From sequence record OR539221.1: a DNA stretch of 64,000 bases; one strand, 5' to 3'. The notes beneath the pieces were generated by a model. That model had not been told where the DNA came from. It did not search any database and worked only from the letters and a program-made list of their open reading frames with translations. The position numbers and the translations under genes were made by a program. This document shows, piece after piece, positions 4,254-27,417 of the stretch (positions are counted from its first letter, which is position 1; each line of letters begins with the position of its first letter). This DNA comes from Escherichia phage vB-Eco-KMB42.

Positions 4254-5672
4254 TTATGGATAGGTATAGATGATACCAGTTTCTAAAGCAGTTTTATGAA
4301 TGATGTATCCATTGCGCGATTCTTGGACATCAACTTCTGGATAGTCTTTCATCATCTTCTGAAGCGTATAACGATGCAAGTAGTACTTACTATCTGGGTC
4401 GTCAGTTTTCCAATCTTTACCTTCTTCAGTCATTTTTTGGATTTCATCCATAACCCACCAACCGCACCAGATATAAGCTGAAGTACGGTGCGGAAGAGGA
4501 TGAACATAAGGCAATTCACCTTCTGGTTCTGGAGCAACTTTATCAGTCACTTGAACTTGACCTGTTGTTTTAACTGTTTTGCTATCATAATCAGTTGCTG
4601 TAACGACAGCAGTAACTTCAATAGTTTGACTTCCAACAGATGAGGTATCGACAGTATATACGTTAGTTGACCCTTCTACAGGAGAAGAATCTTTCTTCCA
4701 CGAGTAAGTAATTTGTGCTTCTTCTGGAGCATCCGTAACATTAGCCGTAAATGTAGCTGAAGCATCTTGCTGAACGTTAATAGAAGGAGGAGTCAATGTA
4801 ACCTGTGGATTCATTGTCTTCTTATTAACTGTCAATGACACTTCATTAGAAGTAACTTCCTTTTCATTGTAATTTTCTGCTGTTACTTGGGCTACGCATT
4901 TAATTCTTTTTACTCCACTTGTAGTTGGAGTATAGCTAAATGTAGAGTTAGTTTCTCCACCAACTTGTGAATCATCTACATACCACTGATACGTAGCAGA
5001 TGCTCCATCAGGTTGAGAAGCTAAGGCAGCAGTAAATTGAACTGGGGTTCCAATTACTCCAGCTGAAGGACTATCGGGAGTTACTGCCAAAGTAGTTGTC
5101 TGTGTCTTTTTATTAACAGTCAGTGACACTTCATTAGAAGTAACTTCTTTTGCATCATAATCTGTCGCGGTTACTTGAGCTACACACTTAATTGTTTTAA
5201 CTCCACTTGTGTCAGGAGTGTAATTGAATGTAGCGCTAGTCGCTTCGCTCACAGGAGAACTGTCAACGTACCATTGATACGTAGCAGATGCGCCTGATGG
5301 CTGCGAAGCCAAAGCAGCGGTAAATTTAACAGCTGTTCCAATCACTCCAGCCGCAGGACTAGCAGGAGTTACGGCTAAGGTAGTCGTCTGTGTCTTATTT
5401 TTAACTGTGATAGTTGTTGTCGCTTCAGCCGTTTCCGGGCCTCCTTCAGAAAGTGTATTTGTTGCAACTACTTTAATAGTCTTTTGACCAGCAGGACCTT
5501 TTAATACATAATCAAAAGTTGCTTCAGACCCATCTTGTGGAGCATTATCTACACTCCAAGCATAAGTAATAGTTCCACCTCCAGTTTCACCACTGGGTGC
5601 AGCAGTAAACTGCTTGGTTTCATCAATAACTCCTGACGGTGTTTTAGGAGTTATATCAACTGTAAAAGCCAT
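4254..5672 (-). CDS. hoc: Hoc outer capsid decoration protein, 472 aa with tandemly duplicated Ig-like domain
   Basis: N-terminus MAFTVDITPKTP and C-terminal capsid-binding region match T4 Hoc; internal 96-aa repeat. Confidence 0.9.
   Translation of the reverse strand: MAFTVDITPKTPSGVIDETKQFTAAPSGETGGGTITYAWSVDNAPQDGSEATFDYVLKGPAGQKTIKVVATNTLSEGGPETAEATTTITVKNKTQTTTLAVTPASPAAGVIGTAVKFTAALASQPSGASATYQWYVDSSPVSEATSATFNYTPDTSGVKTIKCVAQVTATDYDAKEVTSNEVSLTVNKKTQTTTLAVTPDSPSAGVIGTPVQFTAALASQPDGASATYQWYVDDSQVGGETNSTFSYTPTTSGVKRIKCVAQVTAENYNEKEVTSNEVSLTVNKKTMNPQVTLTPPSINVQQDASATFTANVTDAPEEAQITYSWKKDSSPVEGSTNVYTVDTSSVGSQTIEVTAVVTATDYDSKTVKTTGQVQVTDKVAPEPEGELPYVHPLPHRTSAYIWCGWWVMDEIQKMTEEGKDWKTDDPDSKYYLHRYTLQKMMKDYPEVDVQESRNGYIIHKTALETGIIYTYP
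4821..5396 (-). repeat. tandem 288-bp duplication inside hoc encoding two ~80% identical 96-aa Ig-like domains
   Basis: protein segments KTQTTTLAVTP...EVSLTVNK repeated twice. Confidence 0.85.
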
Positions 5673-5681
5673 AAGTTATCC

Positions 5682-6362
5682 TTATTTTAATGTTACGAAA
5701 GAAGAATTGCGTGTTTCACGAATTAAAACTGATCCGTCGCGATTAATGTAATAAATTAAGCTAAACAGAGTTTGGTGTGCTGACGCGTGTTCAAAACTAG
5801 TTGGATGAGATTTCCAATCAGGAGTTTCAGCGATCCATTGATAAATCCACCAAGGAACCGTACAGAATCCTGGATTTTTCCCCAATAATTGAAGATTCGG
5901 GCTAAAGTTTTCCGGAAGAGTAAATACAGACGGCTTTTCAGATTCAATAATCTCAGCTACAGCTTGTTCAAACTTTTCTTCAACAAAAGGAGTGTCTTCA
6001 ATCAAACCATCAGTATTTTCAGGAATTTTATCCGTTTCTACCACTTCAATTTTAACATCAGATTTAACTGGAGAATCAATCAGAAGTGCTGCTTCTGGAT
6101 TAACTTCTTCATCGTCATATTTTAATCCCTCTGCAGCATCAGCAGCATCAATTAAGTCTTTAATAGATAACCCATCAGTCTCTGGCATAGGTTCACTAGC
6201 GAGCTTCTGGAGGGCTTCTTCAATATCAACAACGATATTATCAAAAGATTTATTCTTTTTGACCTTTATACCAAACTGTTCAGCGTATTCAGCTAATTTA
6301 GCTTTAGCTTCTTTATTATCATCAAGAGCCTTCAGCTCTGCAATATAATCTTTATCTATCAT
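5682..6362 (-). CDS. inh: Inh, inhibitor of prohead protease (226 aa)
   Basis: synteny between hoc and uvsW, T4 Inh size. Confidence 0.8.
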   Translation of the reverse strand: MIDKDYIAELKALDDNKEAKAKLAEYAEQFGIKVKKNKSFDNIVVDIEEALQKLASEPMPETDGLSIKDLIDAADAAEGLKYDDEEVNPEAALLIDSPVKSDVKIEVVETDKIPENTDGLIEDTPFVEEKFEQAVAEIIESEKPSVFTLPENFSPNLQLLGKNPGFCTVPWWIYQWIAETPDWKSHPTSFEHASAHQTLFSLIYYINRDGSVLIRETRNSSFVTLK

Positions 6363-6369
6363 AATATTT

Positions 6370-6390
6370 CCTCAGTATAAATATAGATAT
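6370..6390 (+). promoter_or_regulatory. late promoter (TATAAATA) for uvsW
   Basis: TATAAATA at 6376-6383. Confidence 0.65.
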
Positions 6391-6412
6391 ATTTATTACA
6401 TGGTATTTAGAC

Positions 6413-7924
6413 ATGACTGACATTAAAGTACATTTTTATGATTTTAGTCACGTGAGAATTGATTGTGAAGAAAGTACATTTCATGAACTCCGTGATTTCT
6501 TTAGCTTTGAAGCTGATGGGTATCGTTTTAATCCGAAATACAAATATGGCAACTGGGATGGACGAATCCGTCTTTTAGATTATAATCGTCTTCTTCCATT
6601 CGGCTTAGTCGGGCAAATTAAAAAGTTCTGTGATAACTTTGGCTATAAAGCCTGGATTGACCCACAAATTAACGAAAAAGAAGAATTATCAAGAAAAGAT
6701 TTTGATGAATGGCTTTCTAAATTAGAAATCTATTCAGGAAATAAAAGAATTGAACCACACTGGTATCAAAAAGATGCAGTGTTCGAAGGATTAGTTAATC
6801 GTCGTAGAATTCTTAATCTTCCAACTTCGGCTGGTAAATCTTTAATTCAAGCTTTGCTTGCGCGATATTATTTGGAAAATTATGAAGGTAAAATTCTTAT
6901 CATTGTTCCAACAACTGCTCTGACAACTCAGATGGCTGATGACTTTGTTGATTATCGTTTATTCAGTCACGCAATGATAAAGAAAATTGGTGGCGGAGCA
7001 TCAAAAGATGATAAATATAAAAATGATGCACCAGTCGTTGTTGGTACATGGCAAACTGTAGTAAAACAACCAAAAGAATGGTTCTCACAGTTTGGAATGA
7101 TGATGAATGATGAATGCCATCTTGCTACAGGAAAAAGTATTTCATCTATCATATCAGGTTTAAATAACTGCATGTTCAAATTTGGTCTATCTGGTTCATT
7201 ACGTGATGGCAAAGCCAATATCATGCAGTATGTTGGAATGTTTGGTGAAATATTTAAGCCAGTAACGACTTCTAAATTAATGGAAGATGGGCAAGTAACT
7301 GAGCTAAAAATTAATAGTATTTTTCTTCGCTATCCCGATGAGTTCACTACTAAATTAAAGGGAAAAACTTATCAAGAAGAAATAAAAATTATTACGGGGC
7401 TTAGTAAAAGAAATAAATGGATCGCTAAATTAGCTATTAAGCTTGCGCAAAAAGATGAAAACGCTTTTGTCATGTTTAAACATGTATCGCACGGTAAAGC
7501 TATTTTCGATTTAATTAAAAATGAATACGATAAAGTTTATTACGTATCAGGGGAAGTTGATACCGAAACACGCAATATAATGAAAACCTTAGCTGAAAAT
7601 GGTAAAGGAATAATTATAGTAGCTAGTTATGGTGTATTTTCTACTGGTATTTCAGTTAAAAATCTGCATCACGTTGTTTTAGCGCACGGTGTTAAATCAA
7701 AAATCATTGTATTACAAACAATCGGTCGTGTATTACGTAAGCATGGTTCTAAGACAATAGCAACAGTCTGGGACCTCATAGATGATTGTGGTGTTAAGCC
7801 AAAATCTGCTAATACGAAAAAGAAATATGTTCATTTGAACTATCTTTTAAAACACGGCATTGATCGTATTCAGCGCTACGCAGATGAAAAATTCAATTAC
7901 GTAATGAAAACAGTTAATTTATAA
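6413..7924 (+). CDS. uvsW: UvsW DNA/RNA helicase (503 aa)
   Basis: helicase motifs (Walker A PTSAGKS, DECH box), late promoter TATAAATA 6376-6383. Confidence 0.92.
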   Translation: MTDIKVHFYDFSHVRIDCEESTFHELRDFFSFEADGYRFNPKYKYGNWDGRIRLLDYNRLLPFGLVGQIKKFCDNFGYKAWIDPQINEKEELSRKDFDEWLSKLEIYSGNKRIEPHWYQKDAVFEGLVNRRRILNLPTSAGKSLIQALLARYYLENYEGKILIIVPTTALTTQMADDFVDYRLFSHAMIKKIGGGASKDDKYKNDAPVVVGTWQTVVKQPKEWFSQFGMMMNDECHLATGKSISSIISGLNNCMFKFGLSGSLRDGKANIMQYVGMFGEIFKPVTTSKLMEDGQVTELKINSIFLRYPDEFTTKLKGKTYQEEIKIITGLSKRNKWIAKLAIKLAQKDENAFVMFKHVSHGKAIFDLIKNEYDKVYYVSGEVDTETRNIMKTLAENGKGIIIVASYGVFSTGISVKNLHHVVLAHGVKSKIIVLQTIGRVLRKHGSKTIATVWDLIDDCGVKPKSANTKKKYVHLNYLLKHGIDRIQRYADEKFNYVMKTVNL

Positions 7925-16789: not shown

Positions 16790-16850
16790 TGTCAGTAAAA
16801 CTACTATAACACAATACGAGGGACTTGTAAACTACATTTTGAACTTTTTA
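16790..16850 (-). promoter_or_regulatory. early sigma70-type promoter (-35 GTTTAC, -10 TATAGT)
   Basis: minus-strand GTTTAC at 16827-16832, 18-bp spacer; nearly identical to promoter at 32140-32200. Confidence 0.6.
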
Positions 16851-18889
16851 GACATTCCGTTGATGTTAACCAAAGAAGCTAAGATTTGAGAAACTTCGTT
16901 TTCCTCTTCTTTTGATTCTTCTACAAGGAATTGATTAAATCCAGCCATTGGACGAACTTCACCAGTTTCCATCAGATGGTCGCCATCATATACTGATTCT
17001 TCTAATTGTTCAGAAGGAGAAACGATTGTACCTTCGATTAGATACTTGTTATAAGCAGTTTCTTTCATCATGTACGTACTTACTTTATTAATCTTCAGTA
17101 AAATTCCACGCGGCAAAATAACTTCAGCTTCGGATGGAAATCCTGATAAATGACCTGGAACGATAACTTTAACTCGTTCAGCTCCTTTAATTACCATACC
17201 TACATTAGTTTCAGCGTCTTCATTCGCATATGTAGAATGACTACCCATATGCATTAAATCTTCAGCATCAACTGAACCTTCTCCTTCACCAGAAAATACT
17301 GTTCCAGCGTCATCTAAAGCCATATAATTTTTACCATATTCACCGAAGATATTTGGCTTGAGTGAAGTAGATACAAAGTTCTTGAAATAGAACATTTTAT
17401 TTTCTATATTATGACGTAAAGTTTTAAAAGTAACTTCTTGGCCACGGTAAAGTGTAGTTCCCGGAGGAAGAACTGAACCTTTAGCAAATGCAGAATCCAA
17501 CGTCTCAATGTGCTTAATAGCACGTTCCATATATTCTTCACGTGTAGAATCAGGTTTACCTAAAAGGAATGAGTTCATTTCAACATATGAATCTGCACAA
17601 TAATCTTCAATTACATCAGATTCAGCCTGAGTTAATCCTTTTGGAGTTACTTCAGTGCTTGCATATTCATATGCCTGAGCAGCAGATTCATCAATTAATT
17701 TATAAATTCCATTCATTACAAATTGAATAATAGCTGTCTTTTCATCTGGTGTAGCTTTAGAACCTTTAACTAAATCATTGATAATTTTCTTAATAACATC
17801 AAAACTATTAGAAATATTAATATCAGCAAGATCACTTAAAATTTTATCAGTTTTATAATCAAAGAATTCTTTATTCTTTAAATATTCTTGAGAACCTTGA
17901 TATGTTATATCGCTCTGCAGCTTGATAGATGGATCGCGTAAACGTGCATGGGCCAATGCAATATGATTTCGGAAGCTTTCGAGTTCATAATCACTAGATT
18001 TAAAACGAGAAGCACTTCTCATACCACCGATAGCTCCTTTGCTAAAGTTTGAACCAACCTGAATAACGCCAGAGTTCATTGGTCCTTCTGCTTTATATAC
18101 CGGAACTTTAGATTCAAACTCTTGATATTTCTTAGCAGCGAAGCTATCACCCTGAAGTGAAGCATCAACAGTAGAATATTGAGCTTGCGCTGCTAATCGA
18201 CGACTAATTTTAGTTTTCTGAATAACAGCTTGATCCGTGCGCTTATCATTTTCTAAAGCAATAGAAGCAGCAACAGCAACAGCTTTAGGAACAGCATTAC
18301 CTGTTTTAACGTCTACATAAACATCACCAACCTTTGATTCAACTTTTGTGAATAACTCGGTTGAAATAGGAGGTACACCTGGAATGTCTTCTAAATTGGC
18401 ATTTTTACGGTAAACCATAATATATGCGTACTTTTTATCATAATCCCAGATTTCCTTTAAAAGAACATATCGACCTGCTCCTTTAGTACGTACTAAACGG
18501 TCAGCAATAACTTGCATTTGACGAGCAGCGCCATTTGTTTTACTTTTTAGTACGCGGAATAAGCATGCATCAATTTTATACTGTTTCATTGTTTGAAGAG
18601 CAGTATCAAAAACAGCATTAATGACGCCAATTGGATTTCCACCCAAGTTTTTAAGCTTAACTAATGATAGTTTCTCATTAACACCTATCATTACGATATG
18701 CATCATTTTGTCGCCTGGCTTAACGTTTTTATTCGTATCACCGCCAGAGGTGTATGTACAAAATCTAAATCCAGGAAGCACGCTTTCTTCACCGGCTTGA
18801 ATAGCAAAAATTTGTGGTATTTTATGCTTAGGATTTAAGTTAACAACCGGCGCCGAAGCGCCGTCAAATAATTCTGTAATAAGTTCCAT
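16832..18889 (-). CDS. Alt-family mono-ADP-ribosyltransferase paralog (685 aa; T4 alt.-2/alt.-1 position)
   Basis: N-terminal MELITELFD region highly similar to adjacent alt; C-terminal R-S-E type ART signature (LYRG...FVSTSL...SEAEVILPRG). Confidence 0.82.
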   Translation of the reverse strand: MELITELFDGASAPVVNLNPKHKIPQIFAIQAGEESVLPGFRFCTYTSGGDTNKNVKPGDKMMHIVMIGVNEKLSLVKLKNLGGNPIGVINAVFDTALQTMKQYKIDACLFRVLKSKTNGAARQMQVIADRLVRTKGAGRYVLLKEIWDYDKKYAYIMVYRKNANLEDIPGVPPISTELFTKVESKVGDVYVDVKTGNAVPKAVAVAASIALENDKRTDQAVIQKTKISRRLAAQAQYSTVDASLQGDSFAAKKYQEFESKVPVYKAEGPMNSGVIQVGSNFSKGAIGGMRSASRFKSSDYELESFRNHIALAHARLRDPSIKLQSDITYQGSQEYLKNKEFFDYKTDKILSDLADINISNSFDVIKKIINDLVKGSKATPDEKTAIIQFVMNGIYKLIDESAAQAYEYASTEVTPKGLTQAESDVIEDYCADSYVEMNSFLLGKPDSTREEYMERAIKHIETLDSAFAKGSVLPPGTTLYRGQEVTFKTLRHNIENKMFYFKNFVSTSLKPNIFGEYGKNYMALDDAGTVFSGEGEGSVDAEDLMHMGSHSTYANEDAETNVGMVIKGAERVKVIVPGHLSGFPSEAEVILPRGILLKINKVSTYMMKETAYNKYLIEGTIVSPSEQLEESVYDGDHLMETGEVRPMAGFNQFLVEESKEEENEVSQILASLVNINGMSKKFKM

Positions 18890-18892
18890 GAT

Positions 18893-20986
18893 TTATCCTT
18901 GAACGAACTTGTAAGGCATGTTTGTAATATCTATGCAAGACGCAATAATTCCAAGAGATGATTCTACTTTCTGTTTAATATTTGATGAAACAAATGATGC
19001 AAAGTCAACTCTGTCTTCTATTTCAATATCACCTGTCATTGCAACCAATTCACCAGTTTCCATTAAATGGTCTCCATCATAGATTACCGATTCGGTGAGC
19101 TCTTCCGTGGTCATAACTTCAGCTTGAATGAGTTTTGTATTATTAGATGTTGTTCCGTCATTATTAGAAGCATCAGTTATTTTATTAACCTTGACCATCA
19201 ATCCGCGTGGTAGAATAACTTCAGCTTCTGTTGCTATTCCGAGACTTCCTGGATATACAACATTAACTTTATGAGCTCCATCAATTGCCCATCCTATTTG
19301 AACTTTAACATATTCAGGATTTTCTTTATACGCTCTTATTTCGTTTGGATTAATAGTTATTCCTTCTTCATTTTTATCAACTGTTAATTCGTTACGAGCT
19401 TCTGGTTCTAAAAGACCAATACCAGCATGTGTGATTCCAAAACGTCCAAAAATGATAGGAGTTAAAGAAGTAGATACAAAATTTCTGAAGTAGAACACTT
19501 TATTTTTAACTAACGCTTCATATATAGGAGCAGTCATACTTTGAGCACGATAAACTGTAATGCCTTCTGGTATACGGTCACCATTTTCAAAAGCTGAATC
19601 TAAGTTATTTATAGCAGATTCAATTTCTTTTTCACTCATTACATCGTATCGTTCTGGATTGTAACGACCTAAAAGAAGATTATTGATGTCAGTATATCCT
19701 GAACCGCAATATTCTCTAATGCCACGCTTTTGTGATGGAGTATATTTAGAACCATCGCGGGCAATAGTAATATCAATCATTGGACCAGCACCAATTCCAG
19801 AAAAACTGTAAATCATTCGTTTGAGGAATTTAGTTTTTGCTGCGTTCCAGGAATTTTTAGTTATTTCTTCCCAGACTTCATCTGGTTGTCCTTTACGATT
19901 TTTATTATGATTAGCAAGCCATTTATCTTTATAATCTTCAAAGAATTGATTTACAGCTGCTGCGTATTTCTCTAAACATTTTATTGAAGTAGTTGGTTCA
20001 TTTTTAATTGCATTAAAAATTACTTCTTTAATTTTTTCTGAAACTTCACCGACTTGACTCATTGGAAAGAATTTATAATCATAGTGAAGTTCATCTGCCG
20101 TTCCTTCAGCAATAATTTTTGCTGCCTTTGTTTTAGAAGCTAATGAATTAATTCCAATTTTCATTTCTTCTGCTTCGGGAATTAAAGGTGCAGTAGCTGG
20201 TTTATTAAAATTAGCTGCTGTAGATTCATACTTCTGGAATAATTCACTTTCAAATCTAGAAGATTCCAATGACTGACTTTGTGCAATTGCTCTACGGGAA
20301 ATTTTAACTTTAACGATTACAGCTTGGTCAGAACGTTTATCATTTTCTTGTGCAATTGATGCTGCAATTGCCTCATTTTTAGTTACTTGGGCTCCAGTAT
20401 CTTTATTGATATAAACATCACCGACTTTCGATTCAACTTTAGTAAAGAGTTCAGTGCTAATTTCTGGAACTCCTGGAATGTCTTCTAGTGATACATTTTT
20501 ACGATGTATAAGAATATATGCATACTTTTTATCGTAATCCCAGAGTTCCTTAAGAAGGACGTATCTGCCACCTGAACGACTACGGATAAGTCTATCAGCA
20601 ATAACTTGAATTTGTCTAGCTTGGCCAGCAGTTTTAGACTTAAGAATACGAAGCATACAGGCATCAATTTTATATTGACGCATTGTTTGCATTGCAACAG
20701 TAAAAACTGAATTGATATAATTAATCGGGCTTGGACCAAGACCTTTTAATTTGGCAATTGAACCTTTAGCAGTTAATGTAAAAGGAACAATATGCATCAT
20801 TTTATCGCCCATCTTTAAATCGCGATTAGTATCACCTCCAGATGTATAGGTACATAAACGAAAGCCTGGTTGTTCAATTGCATCATCAACATGAACTGAA
20901 AAAATTTGTGGTATTTTCTTCTTTGGATTTAAGTTTGTAATCGGAAGAGTAGTATCTTCGTCAAATAATTCTGTAATAAGTTCCAT
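18893..20986 (-). CDS. alt: Alt ADP-ribosyltransferase, capsid-packaged (697 aa)
   Basis: MELITELFDEDTTLPITNL N-terminus; ART motifs VYRAQ...FVSTSL...TEAEVILPRG; late promoter TATAAATA (minus) 21010-21017. Confidence 0.85.
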   Translation of the reverse strand: MELITELFDEDTTLPITNLNPKKKIPQIFSVHVDDAIEQPGFRLCTYTSGGDTNRDLKMGDKMMHIVPFTLTAKGSIAKLKGLGPSPINYINSVFTVAMQTMRQYKIDACMLRILKSKTAGQARQIQVIADRLIRSRSGGRYVLLKELWDYDKKYAYILIHRKNVSLEDIPGVPEISTELFTKVESKVGDVYINKDTGAQVTKNEAIAASIAQENDKRSDQAVIVKVKISRRAIAQSQSLESSRFESELFQKYESTAANFNKPATAPLIPEAEEMKIGINSLASKTKAAKIIAEGTADELHYDYKFFPMSQVGEVSEKIKEVIFNAIKNEPTTSIKCLEKYAAAVNQFFEDYKDKWLANHNKNRKGQPDEVWEEITKNSWNAAKTKFLKRMIYSFSGIGAGPMIDITIARDGSKYTPSQKRGIREYCGSGYTDINNLLLGRYNPERYDVMSEKEIESAINNLDSAFENGDRIPEGITVYRAQSMTAPIYEALVKNKVFYFRNFVSTSLTPIIFGRFGITHAGIGLLEPEARNELTVDKNEEGITINPNEIRAYKENPEYVKVQIGWAIDGAHKVNVVYPGSLGIATEAEVILPRGLMVKVNKITDASNNDGTTSNNTKLIQAEVMTTEELTESVIYDGDHLMETGELVAMTGDIEIEDRVDFASFVSSNIKQKVESSLGIIASCIDITNMPYKFVQG

Positions 20987-21004
20987 GTTATCCTCTCTAG
21001 TGTT

Positions 21005-21022
21005 TATTCTATTTATAAAATT
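21005..21022 (-). promoter_or_regulatory. late promoter (minus) for alt
   Basis: plus-strand TATTTATA at 21010-21017, 24 nt upstream of alt ATG. Confidence 0.6.
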
Positions 21023-21040
21023 AAAGGCCCGAAGGCCTTT
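21023..21040 (-). terminator. hairpin after alt.1-position ORF, immediately upstream of alt late promoter
   Basis: AAAGGCC-CGAA-GGCCTTT. Confidence 0.5.
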
Positions 21041-21042
21041 AA

Positions 21043-21228
21043 TTAATAGAGAGCTAAAAGAGTACGATATACTTCAAACTTTGGACCTTTTTCATATGGA
21101 TCAAATCTTTCCGTGAATTCATCATATGCTAGTTTATCTGGGAATTCAAGAATAACCTGCGATACCGCAGTGGAAACATCTCCACCTTCTTTTTGAGCCA
21201 CGACAATTGTTTCTAAGTAAGCTTTCAT
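21043..21228 (-). CDS. hypothetical protein (T4 alt.1 position, 61 aa)
   Basis: ORF, stop overlaps ligase start region. Confidence 0.55.
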   Translation of the reverse strand: MKAYLETIVVAQKEGGDVSTAVSQVILEFPDKLAYDEFTERFDPYEKGPKFEVYRTLLALY

Positions 21229-22688
21229 AAACCAGTTACCTCATGAAAATCGCCAAATACATCTTCGAACGTATTAGCTTTAGTTTTATCTTCACGTAAA
21301 CGAATTGCAATTGGAAGAAATAGCTTAACGTAATCAGTACGTCCATCTAATTTTACCCAGCCGTTGCATTCGCACTCTAGAATTTTTCCAATATAATAAT
21401 TTTGGTTTTCCATAATGCGAGTACGATCAAGTTCATGCGATTTTATACCGGCTTTATCTTTTAAGCCTGAACCAGCATTTACTTTAATTTTTCCACACTC
21501 TGATTCAAGAATGAAACCACCTGCTTTAGTAGGGTCTTTACGGTGAGGATAAATTCCTACAATTTTTAAATCAACATCAATTACTTCTTTAAATTTATAA
21601 AGATTTTTTGAACGAGCATTTTCCCATAATCCATCGATATTTTTAAGAATAATACCTTCAAGACCTTGGTCAATATACTTTTTATAAATTACCTTAGCTT
21701 CATCTAGGTTATTTACTATCTGGTTTTCAATTAAAATTACTTTATCATAGCCTGATGTCATTTGTTCTAGTTTAGAAAAACGTACATCATATTTTAAACG
21801 AAATGCTGGAAGACCATATATTTCTACTAATGGAACATAGTCCCAGACCTGAAACTTCATGCATTGTGCTTCTTTTTCAGAAATGGTTCCCTTTAAAGAT
21901 TTATTAGCGATTCCATTAGAAGTAGTACGTGATTCAGCTACTTCGGCGAATTCTTTAGCTTTACTAATTTCAGGATAAGCATCAAAAAGAAAATCTAGGC
22001 CTTCTGGCTCCTTTTTAACCTGCTCATGGTATACCAATTCGCCATCAATTAACACACCTTCTGGATGAATCTGGCGAGCTTCTGCAGTCATTTTGATTAA
22101 CTCTTCCTTGAGAAGATCTAATCCTAGATATTCATTACCAGCTCGTGATAAAAGACGAACATCATCTAATTCATCACCTCTGACTTCAGCAAAGCACCGA
22201 GCTCCATCAGCTTTTAACTGGGCAAAAGCTGGAAATTTAATATTCTTATTAATGCCTTTTTCATCATAAGAACTTGCCAGCATTTGAGGTTGTTCAGGAA
22301 TTAAACCTGGCCAAACTTTATTTGCAATAGATACAGAAGCACCACATTCAAGGTCTCGCATCATTACTCGACGTAATACTTCAACATCATCTTTTTTACC
22401 ATCGGTGATATATCCGATTAATTCCTCAATTGCCGCATTTCCAGTCAATTTCCGAGTAGCTAACGTGAATTCAATGAAGTCAAGCATATCGGTAAGAGTC
22501 AACATTCCAAAACTCTGGGTAGTAATACCCGGTTTAGGCCATTTCTTGATATAATACTGTAACCCACGAGAATAAGTCAGACGATATACTCGTTTAAGCA
22601 ATTCATTATCTTTATTCTTTTCAAGAATTGCTTGCTTCTGCTTAGTTGAACCAATAGATGCTATTTCGTTCAGAATTTTAAGAATCAT
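21225..22688 (-). CDS. 30: ATP-dependent DNA ligase gp30 (487 aa)
   Basis: N-terminus MILKILNEIASIGSTKQKQAILEK matches T4 DNA ligase; length 487. Confidence 0.95.
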   Translation of the reverse strand: MILKILNEIASIGSTKQKQAILEKNKDNELLKRVYRLTYSRGLQYYIKKWPKPGITTQSFGMLTLTDMLDFIEFTLATRKLTGNAAIEELIGYITDGKKDDVEVLRRVMMRDLECGASVSIANKVWPGLIPEQPQMLASSYDEKGINKNIKFPAFAQLKADGARCFAEVRGDELDDVRLLSRAGNEYLGLDLLKEELIKMTAEARQIHPEGVLIDGELVYHEQVKKEPEGLDFLFDAYPEISKAKEFAEVAESRTTSNGIANKSLKGTISEKEAQCMKFQVWDYVPLVEIYGLPAFRLKYDVRFSKLEQMTSGYDKVILIENQIVNNLDEAKVIYKKYIDQGLEGIILKNIDGLWENARSKNLYKFKEVIDVDLKIVGIYPHRKDPTKAGGFILESECGKIKVNAGSGLKDKAGIKSHELDRTRIMENQNYYIGKILECECNGWVKLDGRTDYVKLFLPIAIRLREDKTKANTFEDVFGDFHEVTGL

Positions 22689-22954
22689 TGTTCATCCTTT
22701 AGAGTTTGGTTTACAGCTCTATTATAAATCAATTCATCATTAAGCTCAGTCAAAGACCTGTGGTACGTGGTTCTAACTTTATTTCCTTGCATCCAGTGCT
22801 TGACGTAAATGAAACCTTGCTCTACACATTTTTTAAAAATTCGTTCGTCTTTTTGAGCTCGGAATTCTGGATTGCATCTAAAAAATTGATTTACGTGACC
22901 GTAATCACGTGTAGTATTACCTTCATTTTCATAAATAGTGTGAACGACAAACAT
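22685..22954 (-). CDS. hypothetical protein (T4 30.1 position)
   Basis: ORF in synteny. Confidence 0.6.
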   Translation of the reverse strand: MFVVHTIYENEGNTTRDYGHVNQFFRCNPEFRAQKDERIFKKCVEQGFIYVKHWMQGNKVRTTYHRSLTELNDELIYNRAVNQTLKDEQ

Positions 22955-23184
22955 TAGAATGCTCCTTGGAAAATATTATCACCACTAGTAGGTCTATTAT
23001 ACAAATACTCTATGCCACCGGGTTTAATATAGTTCCATGTCTGAAACGGATGCGTCTGATATGGATGATATAGATTATAAGGATTAAATCCAGGAGTTCT
23101 CCGGATGCGTCTGATATGGATGATATAGATTATAAGGATTAAATCCAGGAGTTCTCCAGGTAGTGTTCCAAGGAAAAGAATCAT
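22954..23184 (-). pseudogene. 3' fragment of the disrupted 30.2-like gene (shares RTPGFNPYNLYHPYQTHP with upstream ORF)
   Basis: duplicated peptide encoded by both copies of the 55-bp repeat in different register. Confidence 0.55.
23047..23156. repeat. perfect tandem direct duplication, 2 x 55 bp
   Basis: CGGATGCGTCTGATATGGATGATATAGATTATAAGGATTAAATCCAGGAGTTCTC at 23047-23101 and 23102-23156. Confidence 0.95.
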
Positions 23185-23845
23185 TTTTAATCATCTTTTC
23201 AATTACATCTTTTATAGCTTTTTCACTATCAAAACTTTCTTTATTTTCATTCGATGGAAAAAGCTTATTCTCTACATCATTCCATGTATAAACTCGCTGT
23301 GCAGTTTTTGGAATACTGTCACGCTCCCCTCGAGCCATCCAATAAACAGGAACATTTAATATTTCACTCGCATGATCGCAGTGGTGAGCGAGATCGTCAA
23401 TATAACAAATTACGTTATATTTCTCTTTTGCCTTTTTGAACAACTCTTCTTTTGAAGAATCATGACCACACATCAATACTTCTGAGAAGGCACCAGGAAA
23501 AAGAGCATTCAAATTAAATTGACGATTCAGCAGAGCGTCAATAGAATCACCCAGTGCTGTAACAGCTACAAAATTATAATCTTCTTTTAATTTGTTAATT
23601 ACACACAGGGCATCTTTATATGGAGACAAATAGCGAATAAAATCTGAACGATTATACTTTTCGATTAATTTAACACCAAGTTCTTCATCGCAATTAAAGA
23701 GCTTACCAGGAGAAATAAATTTTTCGTCCTGAATCATTTTTAAAATATGTTCCAACGGAAGATTATATTTTTGGGCAAAATAAGGAAGGCCCGATTGCCA
23801 GCTTAAACACACCCCGTCAATATCAGTCAAAATAGTAGGCTTCAT
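23084..23845 (-). CDS. HAD-superfamily hydrolase-like protein (T4 30.2 position), C-terminus truncated by frameshift caused by 55-bp tandem duplication
   Basis: HAD motif I ILTDIDGV and motif IV CYIDD; reading frame continues into ORF 22954-23184 if one repeat copy is removed. Confidence 0.7.
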   Translation of the reverse strand: MKPTILTDIDGVCLSWQSGLPYFAQKYNLPLEHILKMIQDEKFISPGKLFNCDEELGVKLIEKYNRSDFIRYLSPYKDALCVINKLKEDYNFVAVTALGDSIDALLNRQFNLNALFPGAFSEVLMCGHDSSKEELFKKAKEKYNVICYIDDLAHHCDHASEILNVPVYWMARGERDSIPKTAQRVYTWNDVENKLFPSNENKESFDSEKAIKDVIEKMIKNDSFPWNTTWRTPGFNPYNLYHPYQTHPENSWI

Positions 23846-24306
23846 AGAGAGTCTCTTAATAGGTTTAACACATCAATAAATTCAGCTTCGGTTAGTATTG
23901 TATCATCTTTTGTTAGACCACTAGCCATGCTATGCTTCAAAATTTTTCCTTTAGAGGCTTGTAAGGCATCACGAAACCCCTTGTTTTGAATCGCTGCTTC
24001 AAAATATGCATTTGTATACAACTCTTTCCATGCTACAGAGTATCTTGAAAAGGGAATTCCAAGCCAGAAAAGCGTCCCACGGTCCGCAGCTCTTGCATAA
24101 GCTCTTCCACTTTGCTGGGCGGCCAAGCCGGAGAGCCCAAATATACGTTTTTGTTGTTCAACATTTTTCACCTTGCATCCTTGGAGGAATCCTTCAAGAC
24201 CTCCGAATTGAATACCATCCATGACGAAAGGCCATTGGGCGAAATTACTTAATGCACACGATGGCCATCTAAAATTGCTTCTAATCTCTAACTCAGACAT
24301 TTTCAA
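23842..24306 (-). CDS. NADAR/YbiA-like (DUF1768-type) protein (T4 30.3 position, 154 aa)
   Basis: motif LSNFAQWPFVMDG...E..LQ.CK resembles YbiA FSNFAAWP...DG...EH..Q; from memory, unverified. Confidence 0.6.
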   Translation of the reverse strand: MKMSELEIRSNFRWPSCALSNFAQWPFVMDGIQFGGLEGFLQGCKVKNVEQQKRIFGLSGLAAQQSGRAYARAADRGTLFWLGIPFSRYSVAWKELYTNAYFEAAIQNKGFRDALQASKGKILKHSMASGLTKDDTILTEAEFIDVLNLLRDSL

Positions 24307-24499
24307 TACTTATAATTTCAACATCAGCCCAATGACCATAGCAAGGAAGACGAAATTCAACTGGCCAGTTAGGGTCCTTTTCTAATATAATAGACTCAAC
24401 TTGTGGTTCTTCATGTTCATCAGTATATGGATTTTTATCTGTTACTTTATATGTGACCTTAATGTACTGAATTCCAAAAATCTTATTAATTATATTCAT
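24293..24499 (-). CDS. hypothetical protein (30.4 position)
   Basis: ORF in synteny. Confidence 0.5.
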   Translation of the reverse strand: MNIINKIFGIQYIKVTYKVTDKNPYTDEHEEPQVESIILEKDPNWPVEFRLPCYGHWADVEIISIENV

Positions 24500-24693
24500 A
24501 CTAATTCCTTTAATCCGTAAATAGGAGACAATTCATCACCCATACGAAGGTCTTCATTTCCATCTACCCAGGAAACAATATAAGCCTCTTTTATTTGAAC
24601 ACCACTCCATTTAAATGGAGGTAGAACCTTAGAAATTAATCCAGGTATACCAACTCCCTTTAATTCAACAGTTTGACCTAAAAAGAATTTCAT
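24496..24693 (-). CDS. hypothetical protein (30.5 position)
   Basis: ORF in synteny. Confidence 0.5.
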   Translation of the reverse strand: MKFFLGQTVELKGVGIPGLISKVLPPFKWSGVQIKEAYIVSWVDGNEDLRMGDELSPIYGLKELV

Positions 24694-24980
24694 TAGAACC
24701 TCATCTGAAAACCATGCGATTTAACATTACCGCCGCCAATATCAGAAATATTAATTTCACGCGCAATTGAAGGGTCAATGTCAATTTCACGATTAAGTTT
24801 AGCGATAGCTAAAGTATCACGCCCATTTACTGTACGGAATTCTAAAGGACAAACCACATCAACGTAATTTTTAATCGATTCACTGGTAGGCTGCAAATGA
24901 GCAGGAAGGTCTTTAGGTGCCTTTGAGAAAACCACTTCACAAAAATTTTTGCGGGTGTCAAAATAAGTAGTCATAAACAT
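24693..24980 (-). CDS. hypothetical protein (30.6 position)
   Basis: ORF with SD GAGGAAAA; hairpin upstream. Confidence 0.55.
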   Translation of the reverse strand: MFMTTYFDTRKNFCEVVFSKAPKDLPAHLQPTSESIKNYVDVVCPLEFRTVNGRDTLAIAKLNREIDIDPSIAREINISDIGGGNVKSHGFQMRF

Positions 24981-24995
24981 AATATTTTCCTCAGT

Positions 24996-25014
24996 AAGGG
25001 GCCGAAGCCCCTCA
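24996..25014 (-). terminator. hairpin between 30.7- and 30.6-position genes
   Basis: minus-strand GGGGC-TTCG-GCCCC directly upstream of SD. Confidence 0.5.
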
Positions 25015-25021
25015 TTTTATT

Positions 25022-25387
25022 TTAAATATCAAATTCGTTAAGAACTACATCAAAGATTGCTTCAAGATGCTCAGGTTTAGCTCTGTTACTCAGAATATGA
25101 CGAATCCAAGTTTTAACCAAAAGCTTGCGATTATCACCATTCCAGCAAGGATGAGTCCCTAAATCGCGTTGACGAAAATCATCATCTAAAGCGATTTTAA
25201 AATTTGAACCTTCCATTGTGATTGAAACCGTGATGCCATTTTCAAATCGCATATAAACGTAGTTAGGAGTCATATACTGTTCAATTTCGCATACTGATCC
25301 ATTTTGATGTTTCCAAAGGCAAATAGTATCAATAGAACCTGCAATACCATTAGAAACATATTTACGTTCAAAGTTGATGTAGTTCAT
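25022..25387 (-). CDS. hypothetical protein (30.7 position, 121 aa)
   Basis: ORF with SD; early promoter 25405-25465. Confidence 0.6.
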   Translation of the reverse strand: MNYINFERKYVSNGIAGSIDTICLWKHQNGSVCEIEQYMTPNYVYMRFENGITVSITMEGSNFKIALDDDFRQRDLGTHPCWNGDNRKLLVKTWIRHILSNRAKPEHLEAIFDVVLNEFDI

Positions 25388-25404
25388 TTTTGTTCTCCGA
25401 GATG

Positions 25405-25465
25405 TTTAATTGCGGTACAGGTATATAATATCATATCCTGTACCAAAGTAAACAATTATTTTACT
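25405..25465 (-). promoter_or_regulatory. early promoter upstream of 30.7-position gene; -10 region embedded in 7-bp inverted repeat
   Basis: minus-strand GTTTAC (25448-25453), 17-bp spacer, TATTATATA; inverted repeat GTACAGG...CCTGTAC 25415-25445. Confidence 0.55.
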
Positions 25466-25788
25466 ACTTTCCAGTGCTTCATGTCAAGTTTACCGACTTT
25501 TTTCATCTTCTCAATTAAGCGTTCGGCACGTTGGCGAGCTGTAACATAATACCATTCACCTAATTCATTTTGTTCAATTTTTCCAACGATTACTGTATTC
25601 AATTCATAAATCCAACCAGTAAAGAAATTATGAACTTGAATTGTAAAGGTGAAATCTGTTCCCATACCTTCTGTTGTTTCTACTTCAATAATATCACCTT
25701 CAACTGCCATTAAGAACCACATAGTTTCGTTATATTCACCATTGAAGCATTTAGCTTTAACTGCAGCGTTCAGATTAATCGTTTTCAT
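25456..25788 (-). CDS. hypothetical protein (30.8 position, 110 aa)
   Basis: ORF with SD AAGGAG; early promoter 25800-25860. Confidence 0.6.
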   Translation of the reverse strand: MKTINLNAAVKAKCFNGEYNETMWFLMAVEGDIIEVETTEGMGTDFTFTIQVHNFFTGWIYELNTVIVGKIEQNELGEWYYVTARQRAERLIEKMKKVGKLDMKHWKVVK

Positions 25789-25799
25789 TTTATTCTCCT

Positions 25800-25860
25800 T
25801 TGTTTGTGTAAGATAATACTATCACAAAGGAACCATACTGTAAACAACTTTATGCAATCT
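25800..25860 (-). promoter_or_regulatory. early promoter upstream of 30.8-position gene
   Basis: minus-strand GTTTAC (25840-25845), spacer 18, TAGTAT. Confidence 0.55.
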
Positions 25861-25861
25861 T

Positions 25862-25895
25862 TGGAAAATAAAAAAGGACTCCCGAAGGAGTCCTC
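25862..25895 (-). terminator. strong rho-independent terminator after 30.9-position gene
   Basis: minus-strand GGACTCC-TTCG-GGAGTCC followed by TTTTTTATTTT. Confidence 0.8.
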
Positions 25896-25898
25896 AAC

Positions 25899-26075
25899 TT
25901 ATGCTTTCTGCTTACCAAAACGAGAAGCATCATCTCGAAGAACCGCACGTGCTCGGCGCATGATCTTCTCAACAGTTTGATTGATACGAGAGTTCGACCC
26001 ACGCTTGTAGCCAGCGCGTTTAGAATCACCAACTTTCTTTTCAACTGCTTTCTTTGCTTTAGCTTGTTTTGCCAT
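25899..26075 (-). CDS. small highly basic protein (30.9 position; start at internal ATG, ~58 aa)
   Basis: K/R-rich ORF followed by strong hairpin terminator; start uncertain (ORF track extends to 26117). Confidence 0.5.
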   Translation of the reverse strand: MAKQAKAKKAVEKKVGDSKRAGYKRGSNSRINQTVEKIMRRARAVLRDDASRFGKQKA

Positions 26076-26320
26076 TATAAATTCTCTTTTAAATGAAAAT
26101 GCAGGACTTATTGGCATTGCCTGCGCAAGCCCTCAAGGGGAACATAGGTTTTTGGGTATTTAACGACCAGGATAACCATAAACCCGTCATCATTCACATT
26201 CAAGAGGTACACCATAAAACTGCCGGGGTCTTAAAACTATAATGATTCGCAAATCATTAATCAGACAGTTCGATGGCTCCTCGATTTTAGCTCACACTAA
26301 GGCAGTGAATCTCCAATAAA

Positions 26321-26569
26321 TTACTTCAATGTTACCACAAAGTGACGAACTGCTTTTCGTGCAGCAGAAGCCAGAGGCTTAGCATACTTAAGTTCATCTT
26401 TTTCCTGAAGCTCAGCAGCTAATGCAGTTTGAGCAGGATTTAGATGTTTGAAATAACGCAGGATTTCAAGAGCTTCGGCTTCAACATCAATAGATGCGCC
26501 ATAGTTTTCGTGACCATTATTCCATGCGTTTCGTTGCAGTTCAAGAGCGTGTTGTAATTGTTTAATCAT
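26321..26569 (-). CDS. rIII: rIII lysis inhibition accessory protein (82 aa)
   Basis: sequence MIKQLQHALELQRNAWNN and 82-aa length match T4 RIII. Confidence 0.88.
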   Translation of the reverse strand: MIKQLQHALELQRNAWNNGHENYGASIDVEAEALEILRYFKHLNPAQTALAAELQEKDELKYAKPLASAARKAVRHFVVTLK

Positions 26570-26703
26570 TTAAAAATTCTCGTTAGAGATTAAAACTCGG
26601 TAGTCACGTTCTTCTGAATTTCATCTTCTTTCGACAGATCTCTCAGTTGTAGACTACCACATAGAATTGTTCGGTTAACTTATTATTCCGACACCCAATT
26701 CAT

Positions 26704-26720
26704 ATTATTATTTATATCAC
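26704..26720 (-). promoter_or_regulatory. late promoter (minus) upstream of rIII
   Basis: plus-strand TATTTATA at 26709-26716. Confidence 0.5.
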
Positions 26721-27052
26721 TTATAAAGACATGGAATAGCTTTATAGTGGCAAGTGACGAATTTTTGTTTAATTTCTTTTGGCTGCTTAAGACCCAGAGC
26801 TACAAAAGGATGCGGAACATTTCGAATTTGACCAACTGGAAGAGAAGTCAAATCACCAACTTCGCAGAAACCTTCAGGAACATCAGGACCAACAGAGTGA
26901 ACTACACACAGTTCAGGAACTTCACCTTGAACACGTTTACCGATAATAAGTCCTGATTCTGTAACTTCTTCATCACCAGCCTGTGCAGGTTCAGAAACTA
27001 AAATAACATATTCACCGACAGCACGAATTGGTAGCTGTTGTACTTCAGACAT
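26717..27052 (-). CDS. 31: gp31 co-chaperonin (GroES analogue, 111 aa)
   Basis: size, synteny, sequence resemblance to T4 gp31. Confidence 0.88.
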
Positions 27053-27108
27053 CGTTTTTCCTTTTTGTTAACAGATGAATTAATAATAACAAATAATTCT
27101 TAAAGCAT

Positions 27109-27417
27109 TTATTTACCAATAAATTGAAGCAAATGCTCAACTTTCATACCATTAACAGAAATCAATTTGCCAATAGAAAAACCTCGCCATGCGCCAAGTT
27201 CAACATCAAATACTGGAATCATGTCAGTAGATTCTTTCCGAGTAGATTCAGTCAATTTACCAGTTTGCATGGTTGGCATAAAGTCTGCATCACGAGTACC
27301 TTTCATAGTACGAATAGTACCATCAGACTTTTCAAAAACTACGTTTGAAACACCCATGGACAATTTGGTTTTCAAAATTTCGCGAATTGCTACTTTCTGC
27401 TCAGTTGTCAGTTTCAT
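27109..27417 (-). CDS. hypothetical protein (31.1 position)
   Basis: ORF in synteny. Confidence 0.6.
   Translation of the reverse strand: MKLTTEQKVAIREILKTKLSMGVSNVVFEKSDGTIRTMKGTRDADFMPTMQTGKLTESTRKESTDMIPVFDVELGAWRGFSIGKLISVNGMKVEHLLQFIGK

Follow-up and report, generated by a model that had tools for sequence, protein, structure and literature searches.

Genes 30.3 and 30.2 in a T4-Like Escherichia Phage: an AdfN-Type NADAR and a Predicted HAD Phosphatase with a Truncated Tail

Locus and gene layout

The window, i.e., the whole stretch of DNA analyzed, comprises 64,000 nucleotides of Escherichia phage vB-Eco-KMB42 (OR539221.1), a Tequatrovirus whose genome shares 99.8% identity with those of phages BECP11 and fFiEco06. 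Gene 30.3 is located between 30.4 and 30.2, as in T4, and is followed by 30.2, 30.1, and the DNA ligase gene, which is the final gene of a tightly packed 30.x array (Table 1). The start of gp30.2 overlaps the stop of gp30.3 as ATGA. A promoter and terminator scan of positions 21000 to 27200 returned sites no more numerous than in shuffled sequence, and it placed no terminator between 30.3 and the ligase gene; the scan therefore indicates that the genes are tightly packed and nothing further.

Table 1. Coordinates of the 30.3-30.2 region and neighboring genes in the window
Feature	Position	Strand	Basis
gp30.3 (AdfN), phage-type NADAR, 152 aa	23842..24300	-	PF08010, identity to T4
gp30.2 as encoded here, C1-capped HAD phosphatase (predicted), 253 aa	23084..23845	-	ORF list, motifs, model
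Perfect 55-bp tandem duplication	23047..23156		TRF
Orphaned 3' end of gp30.2, beyond premature stop	22954..23083	-	Restored ORF
gp30.1 (DUF3045)	22685..22954	-	PF11243 at E 2.9e-64
gp30 DNA ligase	21225..22688	-	ORF; DNA ligase annotation in relatives
Alt-like ADP-ribosyltransferase gene 1	18893-20986	-	PF03496; fFiEco06 annotation
Alt-like ADP-ribosyltransferase gene 2	16832-18889	-	PF03496; fFiEco06 annotation

Two Alt-like ADP-ribosyltransferase (ART) genes are also present (PF03496 at E values of 9.6e-38 and 4.4e-20). A preliminary description, made from the DNA letters, had seen the 30.3-30.2 pair and these ARTs as suggesting an ADP-ribose metabolism or counterdefense theme. No evidence for a functional link was found, and it was rejected: both paralogues are plain PF03496 ARTs in ordinary T4 synteny. 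The known targets of Alt are proteins.

gp30.3 is a phage-type NADAR

The longest open reading frame (ORF) of gp30.3 (23842-24306) encodes 154 amino acids from a TTG codon and contains ALSNFAQWPFVMDGIQFGGLEGFLQGCK, but translation most probably begins at the ATG at 24300, giving 152 amino acids and matching the annotation in relatives and in T4. The protein is identical to T4 gp30.3 at 144 of 152 residues (95%), without gaps and at the same length. It matches Pfam family PF08010 (Phage_30_3) with an E value of 1.6e-67 (226 bits, against a cutoff of 36) over positions 1 to 138 of the 138-position profile. This match and that of gp30.2 to phrog_420 (E, 1.7e-88) are both far beyond chance; the PHROGs families of both proteins lack function annotation.

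The catalytic residues are conserved. E36 (24193-24195) and K43 (24172-24174) lie within GGLE36GFLQGCK43, and both are invariant in the family alignment, as is H123 (23932-23934; LKHSM), which is also nearly invariant across 148 representatives. Histidine at this last-strand position, which is occupied by Glu in YbiA and by Asp in DarG1, is a hallmark of phage NADARs (PMC11125620, PMC11543638). The predicted C-terminal helix (residues 138 to 151) is intact and has the same sequence as in T4; this helix is missing from the inactive RB69 allele.

Single-sequence searches against PDB sequences were empty for gp30.3 and weak for gp30.2 (E of about 1 at best), which made it necessary to use profiles and structure prediction. 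A search of NCBIfam was uninformative for both proteins. The general NADAR profile PF08719 did not match gp30.3 of the window at E values up to 1; it matched 11 of the 148 gp30.3-family representatives (best E, 1.2e-6). Searched against PDB sequences, the gp30.3 family profile retrieved YbiA first (E, 0.057), over the SNF...E..Q..K motif. The AF2 model of gp30.3 has a pLDDT of 82.6 and a pTM of 0.81, and its top three Foldseek matches in the PDB were E. coli YbiA (2b3w; E, 7.4e-5), the Geobacter lovleyi NADAR (8bat), and a Phytophthora NADAR (8bau), with nothing significant besides NADAR structures. The YbiA/NADAR-like character noticed in the preliminary description is thus upheld by PF08010, by fold matches confined to NADARs, and by E36, K43, and the phage-type H123. 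Judged by these sequence features, gp30.3 is AdfN, a NADAR.

In T4, AdfN strips ADP-ribose from DNA and counters DarTG1 defense (Johannesman et al. 2025, PMC11825919). Deletion of adfN renders T4 and T2 sensitive to DarTG1, the T4 phenotype is DarTG1 specific, ectopic AdfN rescues RB69, and purified AdfN de-ADP-ribosylates DNA, with E36A and K43A mutants being impaired (PMC11825919). Activity in vitro has been reported on G-ADPr DNA and RNA (PMC11125620, PMC11833690). For full activity outside T-even infection, AdfN(T4) requires a T-even factor (Johannesman et al., PMC11825919). From its 95% identity to the T4 protein and its conserved catalytic residues, we infer an anti-DarT1 function for gp30.3 in this phage. 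As an “orphan antitoxin” NADAR, it would cleave the N-glycosidic bond between ADP-ribose and guanine, erasing host DarT1 marks on phage DNA and allowing replication in DarTG1-carrying cells.

[quoted passage not shown] The core of the preliminary description was a correct blind prediction of a published function. The anti-DarT role of gp30.3 is known already (published 2024-2025), and the window adds nothing new there.

gp30.2 is a predicted HAD phosphatase

As encoded here, gp30.2 consists of 248 native residues followed by ENSWI and a stop codon, and it contains the motifs ILTDIDGV and CYIDD. HAD motifs I (DxD), II (S/T), III (K), and IV (DD) are complete: among 40 homologues, there is no variation at D8, D10, K132, D150, or D151, and conservation of T96 reaches at least 90%. 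Motif I (D8 and D10; 23816-23824) and motif IV (D150 and D151; 23393-23398) were found in 94 of 100 homologue clusters. The confident AF2 model is a Rossmannoid HAD core with an inserted helical C1 cap. The four motifs, this model, and HAD-type structural neighbors sustain the earlier reading of the neighbor of gp30.3 as a HAD phosphatase. A Pfam search with gp30.2 gave no match, and a literature search on it returned nothing relevant and no assay.

The 5'(3')-deoxyribonucleotidases cdN/mdN and the NT5C family (PF06941; 2jao, 2i7d, and 3bwv) share with gp30.2 the HAD core, the C1 cap, and the DxDGV...W/F context of motif I, and their structures gave the best target-normalized TM-scores to the gp30.2 model (TMt, 0.63 to 0.70). 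Among PDB sequences, cdN was also the first match to the gp30.2 family profile (E, 0.012), and comparison of this family with NADAR-linked NT5C by hhalign gave a probability of 86% (E, 5e-6). PF06941 itself matched neither gp30.2 of the window nor P0023 and matched only 3 of 40 homologues (best E, 1.2e-4). By sequence, gp30.2 is best described as NT5C-like and not as a member of NT5C, the similarity being partial. The predicted activity is that of a Mg-dependent phosphomonoesterase. The cap type predicts a small-molecule substrate, which would most likely be a nucleoside monophosphate or a phosphorylated ribose or ADP-ribose derivative.

A 55-bp duplication truncates the gp30.2 tail

The two copies of the duplication (23047-23101 and 23102-23156) are identical; TRF reports a period of 55, 2.0 copies, a 100% match, and a score of 222 at 23047-23157. 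The frame of gp30.2 is shifted after residue 248, downstream of all HAD motifs, so that the last 30 residues are replaced by 5. Removal of one copy yields an ORF of 278 amino acids (22954-23845), which shares 98% identity with the commonest homologue cluster. Read in the wild-type frame, the native 3' end encodes ...FQTWNYIKPGGIEYLYNRPTSGDNIFQGAF, including a conserved tail motif, G-I/V-E-Y-L...P-T, that 17 of 100 homologue clusters contain. The tail is predicted to be disordered (pLDDT of <50 over most of residues 224 to 279) and is missing from 42 of the 100 clusters. The start of gp30.1 normally overlaps the stop of gp30.2; here gp30.2 stops 130 nucleotides upstream, and the coupling is lost. 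The catalytic domain of the truncated protein should still be produced, with the tail motif and translational coupling to gp30.1 gone.

The copies are arranged head to tail with 1-nucleotide microhomology, and the surrounding region contains short 9-bp repeats.

The preliminary description regarded the HAD gene as disrupted by this duplication and the gene pair as possibly dispensable. A perfect duplication does interrupt gp30.2, but 248 of its 278 residues, including the four motifs and the folded domain, are intact. Nor can the pair be concluded to be dispensable, since gp30.3 itself is fully intact. We also rejected, as the default view, that gp30.2 is a pseudogene here; the frameshift lies past the folded domain and affects a tail that is absent from many homologues.

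Replication slippage in T4-like phages classically generates duplications of this kind, and the present one probably arose in this way. The extra 55 bases are absent from all of the closest phage genomes (99.8% identity), and a 30-mer spanning the junction had no match in 50,697 phage records or in IMG/VR. This uniqueness, together with copies that are still identical and therefore of recent origin, could point to an assembly or sequencing artifact or a recent laboratory mutation, with gp30.2 nonfunctional and the duplication biologically uninformative. We consider that explanation very unlikely: the perfect head-to-tail copy with microhomology and nearby repeats is the pattern of replication slippage, the whole folded domain is kept, and the 42 natural clusters mentioned above are equally short. 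The strain-specific truncation offers a natural allele for probing the importance of the conserved C-terminal motif.

The gp30.2 tail motif bears a loose resemblance to SLDFLFG, with which T4 DNA polymerase ends and binds the clamp (the C terminus of T4 gp43 was checked and reads ...ASLDFLFG); a C-terminal motif resembling the tail occurs in none of the other ORFs of the window. By analogy, the tail may be a candidate sliding-clamp docking segment.

NADAR-HAD coupling across phages

The order NADAR, HAD, ligase was found in 16 T4-like loci; within T4-like phages, this conserved 30.3-30.2 order may be plain synteny. Two further kinds of arrangement were found. First, gp30.3-type NADARs occur in gut metagenomes in single-ORF fusions with NT5C (L026 and L027). 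With the L027 fusion as the query, 1831 clusters were retrieved, with both domains in at least 120, i.e., in all of the matches listed. HAD fusions fall into 4 separate 50%-identity clusters, or about 4 of 147 family representatives, and the KptA-NADAR-NT5C proteins among the fusions adjoin genes for an RNA ligase, an HD and AAA_33 kinase-like protein, and an ADP-ribosylglycohydrolase. Second, in KVP40-like phages 30.3 overlaps an NT5C gene at another site in the genome, next to genes 47/46. The NT5C fusion and adjacency lineage may have a single origin. No description of a NADAR-deoxyribonucleotidase, NADAR-KptA, or NADAR-HAD fusion was found in the literature searched. The recurrent pairing of gp30.3-type NADARs with NT5C-like HADs is the one lead that goes beyond that literature.

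Taking the evidence together, we think it likely that the region represents the pair of genes 30.3 and 30.2 known from T4-like phages, in which gp30.3 has the role of AdfN and the HAD protein is coupled to it. On balance, gp30.2 and AdfN would act in one pathway, because gp30.3-type NADARs are repeatedly fused to, or lie directly before, NT5C-like HADs elsewhere; this recurrent coupling is circumstantial evidence for a role of the HAD protein in ADP-ribose metabolism. gp30.2 could remove a compound that de-ADP-ribosylation leaves behind, whether product or by-product, or could clean ADP-ribosylated guanine nucleotides. Against coupling, AdfN shows activity in vitro and rescues RB69 without a partner (PMC11825919), and gp30.2 is therefore not strictly needed.

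The activity of AdfN in vitro without gp30.2 also fits a different role for the latter, as a 5'(3')-deoxyribonucleotidase-like dNMP phosphatase that reshapes the T4 deoxynucleotide pool, has no tie to AdfN, and is adjacent through inherited gene order. Deoxyribonucleotidases are, as described above, the closest structural and sequence neighbors of gp30.2. In Karamvirus CkP1 and Klebsiella phage 5N, a distance of about 58 kb separates the two genes, most divergent NADAR loci are without a HAD gene (none within 5 kb of the gp30.3-type NADAR at L002, L003, L004, L021-L023, L025, L028, or L029), and in KVP40-like phages the NADAR-NT5C pair is accompanied by a separate gp30.2-like gene at a distance of about 12 kb. 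Conversely, the NADAR-NT5C fusions and the relocated yet adjacent KVP40 pair show selection for linkage, the gene order equals the domain order of the fusions (NADAR first and HAD second), and 30.3 and 30.2 overlap in the window. A pool enzyme independent of AdfN is accordingly a credible alternative that we hold to be the less probable one.

The genes surrounding the KptA-NADAR-NT5C proteins raise another question, that of the substrate. The NADAR-HAD pair might mainly handle small soluble ADP-ribose derivatives and not DNA adducts, with anti-DarT activity as only one facet; candidates include by-products of NAD-dependent RNA repair (ADP-ribose 1''-phosphate and 1''-2'' cyclic phosphate) and NAD-derived immune signals. 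Soluble ADP-ribose substrates have been proposed for phage NADARs by Iyer et al. 2022 (PMC9503650). NADAR genes lie inside tRNA clusters in RSP15 and CkP1, and a C1-capped HAD implies a small substrate. We regard this as unlikely, since all tested NADARs, including that of T4, act on guanine-linked and not phosphate-linked ADP-ribose (PMC11833690), the T4 phenotype is specific to DarTG1 (PMC11825919), and KptA is absent from this region of T4-like phages.

A bolder version of the coupling of gp30.2 to AdfN would make gp30.2 the working partner of AdfN and the very T-even factor required by AdfN(T4), which on its own fails in DarTG1 cells infected with T5 or Bas25. Together they would be a de-ADP-ribosylation module of two enzymes, welded elsewhere into NADAR-NT5C proteins (sometimes with KptA), and the tail motif would dock the phosphatase to a partner; we think this doubtful. 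Should the coupling as such be true, phage reversal of nucleic acid ADP-ribosylation would be a two-step pathway, and one more of the about 100 unassigned T4 genes would have a function.

Comparison with known systems

E. coli YbiA, the founding NADAR, is known as an N-glycosidase of riboflavin intermediates. It is the best structural match to gp30.3 (query-normalized TM-score, 0.62) as well as the best PDB match to its family profile, but the two proteins are only 18% identical, and YbiA has Glu in place of H123.

DarG1 (e.g., the G. lovleyi NADAR) and gp30.3 have in common the fold and, as predicted for gp30.3, the chemistry of guanine-N2-ADP-ribose hydrolysis (PMC11543638). DarG1 has an N-terminal extension, whereas gp30.3 is a NADAR core only, and the catalytic position in the last strand is Asp in DarG1 and His in gp30.3. 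DarG1 is partnered by a DarT toxin gene; gp30.3 has no ART next door, its neighbors being 30.4 and 30.2. With neither an adjacent DarT1 nor the DarG1 extension, gp30.3 was rejected as a member of a DarTG1 toxin-antitoxin system. In uninfected cells, T4 AdfN is unable to substitute for DarG1 (PMC11825919). By analogy, gp30.3 would act like DarG1 yet is an orphan outside any toxin-antitoxin system.

T4 AdfN (PMC11825919) and gp30.3 are orthologues that share E36, K43, H123, the C-terminal helix, and the genome position; the eight substitutions between them are conservative, and the downstream gp30.2 is shortened in the present genome.

The fusions from gut Bacteroidales-associated phage contigs (e.g., P0123 and P0182; L026, L027, and L032), whether NADAR-NT5C or KptA-NADAR-NT5C, resemble the pair in the window in having the NADAR first and the HAD second, and they carry a gp30.3-type NADAR with His in the last strand. 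They differ in that the fusions are one polypeptide and the window has two overlapping genes, and in that their HAD is a clear NT5C while gp30.2 is divergent. Their neighbors are RNA repair and ARH genes, in contrast to the DNA ligase and Alt genes that accompany the 30.3-30.2 pair.

Gene arrangement and identity of gp30.3

The source of the window is a Tequatrovirus (T4-like phage); region 22600-24600 shares 99.8% identity with Escherichia phages BECP11, bov9_1, and fFiEco06 and has matches in 727 phage records. The minus-strand genes follow the standard T4 order: 30.7 ... 30.4, 30.3, 30.2, 30.1, 30 (DNA ligase), alt.1, alt, and alt-like. An ORF lister places the gp30.3 start farther out, at a TTG (24306); relatives and T4 use the ATG. 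A link of the 30.3-30.2 pair to the Alt ADP-ribosyltransferases, raised in the preliminary description, was not supported.

Features of the gene 30.3 region and the Alt genes
Feature	Coordinates	Strand	Remarks
gp30.3	23842-24300	-	ATG start as in relatives and T4
gp30.2	start 23845, premature stop 23084	-	ATGA overlap with gp30.3 stop
Tandem repeat	23047-23157		Period 55, two copies, 100% identical (Tandem Repeats Finder)
gp30.2 tail	22954-23046	-	Homologues P0023-P0078 compared
gp30.1 (DUF3045)	start 22954	-	Normally overlaps gp30.2 stop
Alt-like ADP-ribosyltransferase	18893-20986	-	PF03496
Alt-like ADP-ribosyltransferase	16832-18889	-	PF03496

Judged by its sequence and predicted structure, gp30.3 is AdfN, a NADAR protein, in agreement with the YbiA-like character first proposed for it. 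Pfam, suggested as a check on both proteins, supports gp30.3 through PF08010 (Phage_30_3; E 1.6e-67), though not directly through the general NADAR profile PF08719, which is matched by 11 of 148 representatives of the gp30.3 family; gp30.2 has no significant match in Pfam or NCBIfam. Among PDB sequences the family profile matches Escherichia coli YbiA best, across the SNF...E..Q..K motif (E 0.057), and the only significant PDB matches of the AlphaFold2 model (pLDDT 82.6) are YbiA 2b3w (E 7.4e-5) and the NADARs of Geobacter lovleyi (8bat) and Phytophthora (8bau). The family shows no variation at E36, K43, or H123, the histidine being the published hallmark of phage NADARs (PMC11125620, PMC11543638). 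T4 gp30.3 shares 144 of 152 residues with the window protein, gap-free and including the C-terminal helix, and the fFiEco06 orthologue was annotated by its depositors as a 'member of NADAR and 30.3 superfamilies'.

The core of this finding, gp30.3 as AdfN, is known from earlier work. Johannesman et al. 2025 (PMC11825919) traced T-even resistance to DarTG1, a bacterial defence whose DarT1 toxin ADP-ribosylates guanine in phage DNA, to gene 30.3, for which they introduced the name adfN. T4 and T2 deleted for adfN are DarTG1-sensitive, and RB69, with an allele of its own that carries a frameshift 15 residues before the end, is rescued by ectopic AdfN(T4). The substitutions E36A and K43A weaken AdfN, and DarT1-modified DNA loses ADP-ribose on treatment with the purified protein (PMC11825919). 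Separate papers describe activity in vitro on DNA and RNA ADP-ribosylated at guanine (PMC11125620, PMC11833690). The anti-DarT role, by removal of ADP-ribose from DNA, anticipated in the preliminary description is right and established for the T4 orthologue (PMC11825919); the experiment suggested there had already been performed.

Relatives of gp30.3 occur in varied settings. Gene 30.3-type NADARs lie within tRNA clusters in the unrelated Ralstonia phage RSP15 (locus L002, 3995-4513), beside an annotated 'RNA-binding protein', and Citrobacter phage CkP1 (L004, 4001-4447), with neither ligase nor HAD seen nearby, a setting that may point to functions connected with RNA or tRNA in some phage NADARs. 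In Rhizobium phage AF3 (L003, 4001-4444; NC_070887.1, 60401-60844), a family member (HMM E 3.5e-41; tblastn 38% identity), unannotated in RefSeq, is flanked by a small hypothetical gene and a helicase, with denV a few genes away. Some homologues (P0013, P0014, P0015, and P0022) are short proteins in which part of gp30.3 is joined to families of neighbouring genes, namely PF11097, PF06919 (gp30.7), and PF06019 (gp30.8), an indication that the 30.3-30.8 block of other T4-like phages has undergone deletion or recombination. The Klebsiella phage Roth16 homologue (H79; PQ657790.1, 66950-67387) seems to be mis-annotated as 'anti-CBASS protein acb1'.

gp30.2 and the 55-bp duplication

The neighbouring protein had been called a HAD-type phosphatase, and motifs and fold agree. 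An alignment of 40 homologues contains invariant D8 and D10 (motif I), K132 (motif III), and D150-D151 (motif IV), with T96 (motif II) almost invariant. AlphaFold2 models residues 1-222 of the full-length orthologue with confidence, pLDDT being <50 for most of residues 224-279, and the model has a HAD core with a helical insert following strand 1, i.e., a C1 cap; in the HAD superfamily, such a cap points to a small-molecule substrate. Foldseek gave 107 PDB matches with E values no higher than 1e-3, and each of the 50 listed has the HAD fold; the top target-normalised TM-scores were for deoxyribonucleotidase-like 3bwv (0.68-0.70) and cdN/mdN (0.63-0.68). The family profile best matches mouse cdN 2jao among PDB sequences (E 0.012), and 3 of 40 homologues weakly match Pfam NT5C. 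Given the motifs, model, fold, and weak NT5C matches, we regard gp30.2 as an NT5C-like HAD phosphatase rather than an NT5C member.

The 55-bp duplication (23047-23101 identical to 23102-23156), with 1 base of flanking microhomology in common and short 9-bp repeats around it, has the form expected of replication slippage. The extra 55 bases are missing from all close relatives, and a 30-mer across the junction had no match among 50,697 phage records or in IMG/VR, so the duplication is genome-specific and recent; with one copy deleted, gp30.2 has 278 residues and 98% identity to the commonest homologue cluster. The duplication thus stood as described, but disruption of the HAD gene was overstated: residues 1-248 are kept, followed by ENSWI and a stop, and only the final 30 residues are lost. 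That the gene pair is dispensable on the propagation host found no support. A long tail is absent in 42 of 100 homologue clusters (235 residues or shorter) and differs by lineage in the long forms, so the folded enzyme, as modelled, is probably still made. Translation now ends 130 nt before the gp30.1 start, and since the stop-start overlap is gone, gp30.1 expression may be reduced in this phage.

The lost segment looks, from its sequence, like a short linear motif: G-[I/V/L]-E-Y-[L/W/Y]...P-T is common to 17 of 100 clusters, and other disordered tails end in L-R/K-A-Y-Y (8 clusters) or L-L-N-x-x-A/S-N-D (7), each motif conserved within its lineage. These resemble docking motifs for partners; the lost motif bears a loose likeness to the end by which T4 DNA polymerase binds the clamp (...ASLDFLFG).

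Association of NADAR and HAD genes

The order NADAR, HAD, (30.1), ligase is constant in 16 T4-like loci (L001, L005-L018, and L020), and tblastn found gp30.3 and gp30.2 genes in 1510 and 1455 phage records, respectively, with the same genus spread. Taken alone, the constant order could be synteny. An obligate link is disfavoured, because the two genes are ~58 kb apart in CkP1 and Klebsiella phage 5N and nine divergent NADAR loci, including those of RSP15 and AF3, have no HAD within 5 kb.

Nevertheless, the two domains also meet outside the T4 arrangement. In IMG/VR contigs L026 and L027, a single protein has a gp30.3-type NADAR at its N terminus and an NT5C HAD at its C terminus (motifs DMDxV, ILST, and YLIDDR). 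Where the genes are separate, their order matches that of the fused domains, NADAR first and HAD second. A database query with this fusion gave 1831 clusters; both domains occurred in all of the best 120 of these, 21 of which added an N-terminal KptA/Tpt1 domain. HAD fusions are spread over four separate 50%-identity clusters of the gp30.3 family. KVP40-like Vibrio phages have a standalone NT5C gene that is overlapped by 30.3 and lies next to genes 47 and 46, a genome location other than that in T4, and hhalign relates the gp30.2 family to NADAR-linked NT5C over the N-terminal half (probability 86%, E 5e-6).

Fusion genes adjoin an ADP-ribosylglycohydrolase gene. In L032/L033, from gut metagenome contigs of up to 200 kb, a 503-aa KptA(Tpt1)-NADAR-NT5C protein (6001-7512) is directly followed by it and preceded, with one small gene between, by an RNA ligase gene and an HD + AAA_33 (polynucleotide-kinase-like) gene, a layout resembling a cassette for NAD-dependent RNA repair and ADP-ribose clean-up. 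The KptA-less fusion of L027 adjoins DSP phosphatase, lysozyme, and PP2C phosphatase genes. In the L026 fusion (4914-5966), HAD motif I reads DMGGV instead of DMDxV; as the second catalytic Asp is missing, the phosphatase part of this protein may have lost or changed its activity.

We judge the chances of a real functional coupling of NADAR and HAD to be about even. No description of it was found in the accessible literature, and it offers a testable lead.

Proposed role of gp30.2

We infer that gp30.2, translated from the same message as gp30.3, would dephosphorylate a small phosphomonoester tied to the AdfN reaction. Candidate substrates would include ADP-ribosylated guanine mononucleotides (according to a table in PMC12945103, ScARP-type transferases also modify nucleosides and mononucleotides), breakdown products of freed ADP-ribose, and, prompted by the KptA fusions, phosphorylated ADP-ribose derivatives.

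The T4 orthologue has been shown to neutralise DarT1 and to hydrolyse guanine-N2-ADP-ribose in the DNA of the phage (PMC11825919). It is active alone in vitro and so has no strict need of gp30.2 (PMC11825919). Full AdfN(T4) action occurs only during T-even infection; a helper T-even protein was proposed and DNA modification excluded (PMC11825919). Among many T-even genes, that of gp30.2 is one reasonable candidate for this helper.
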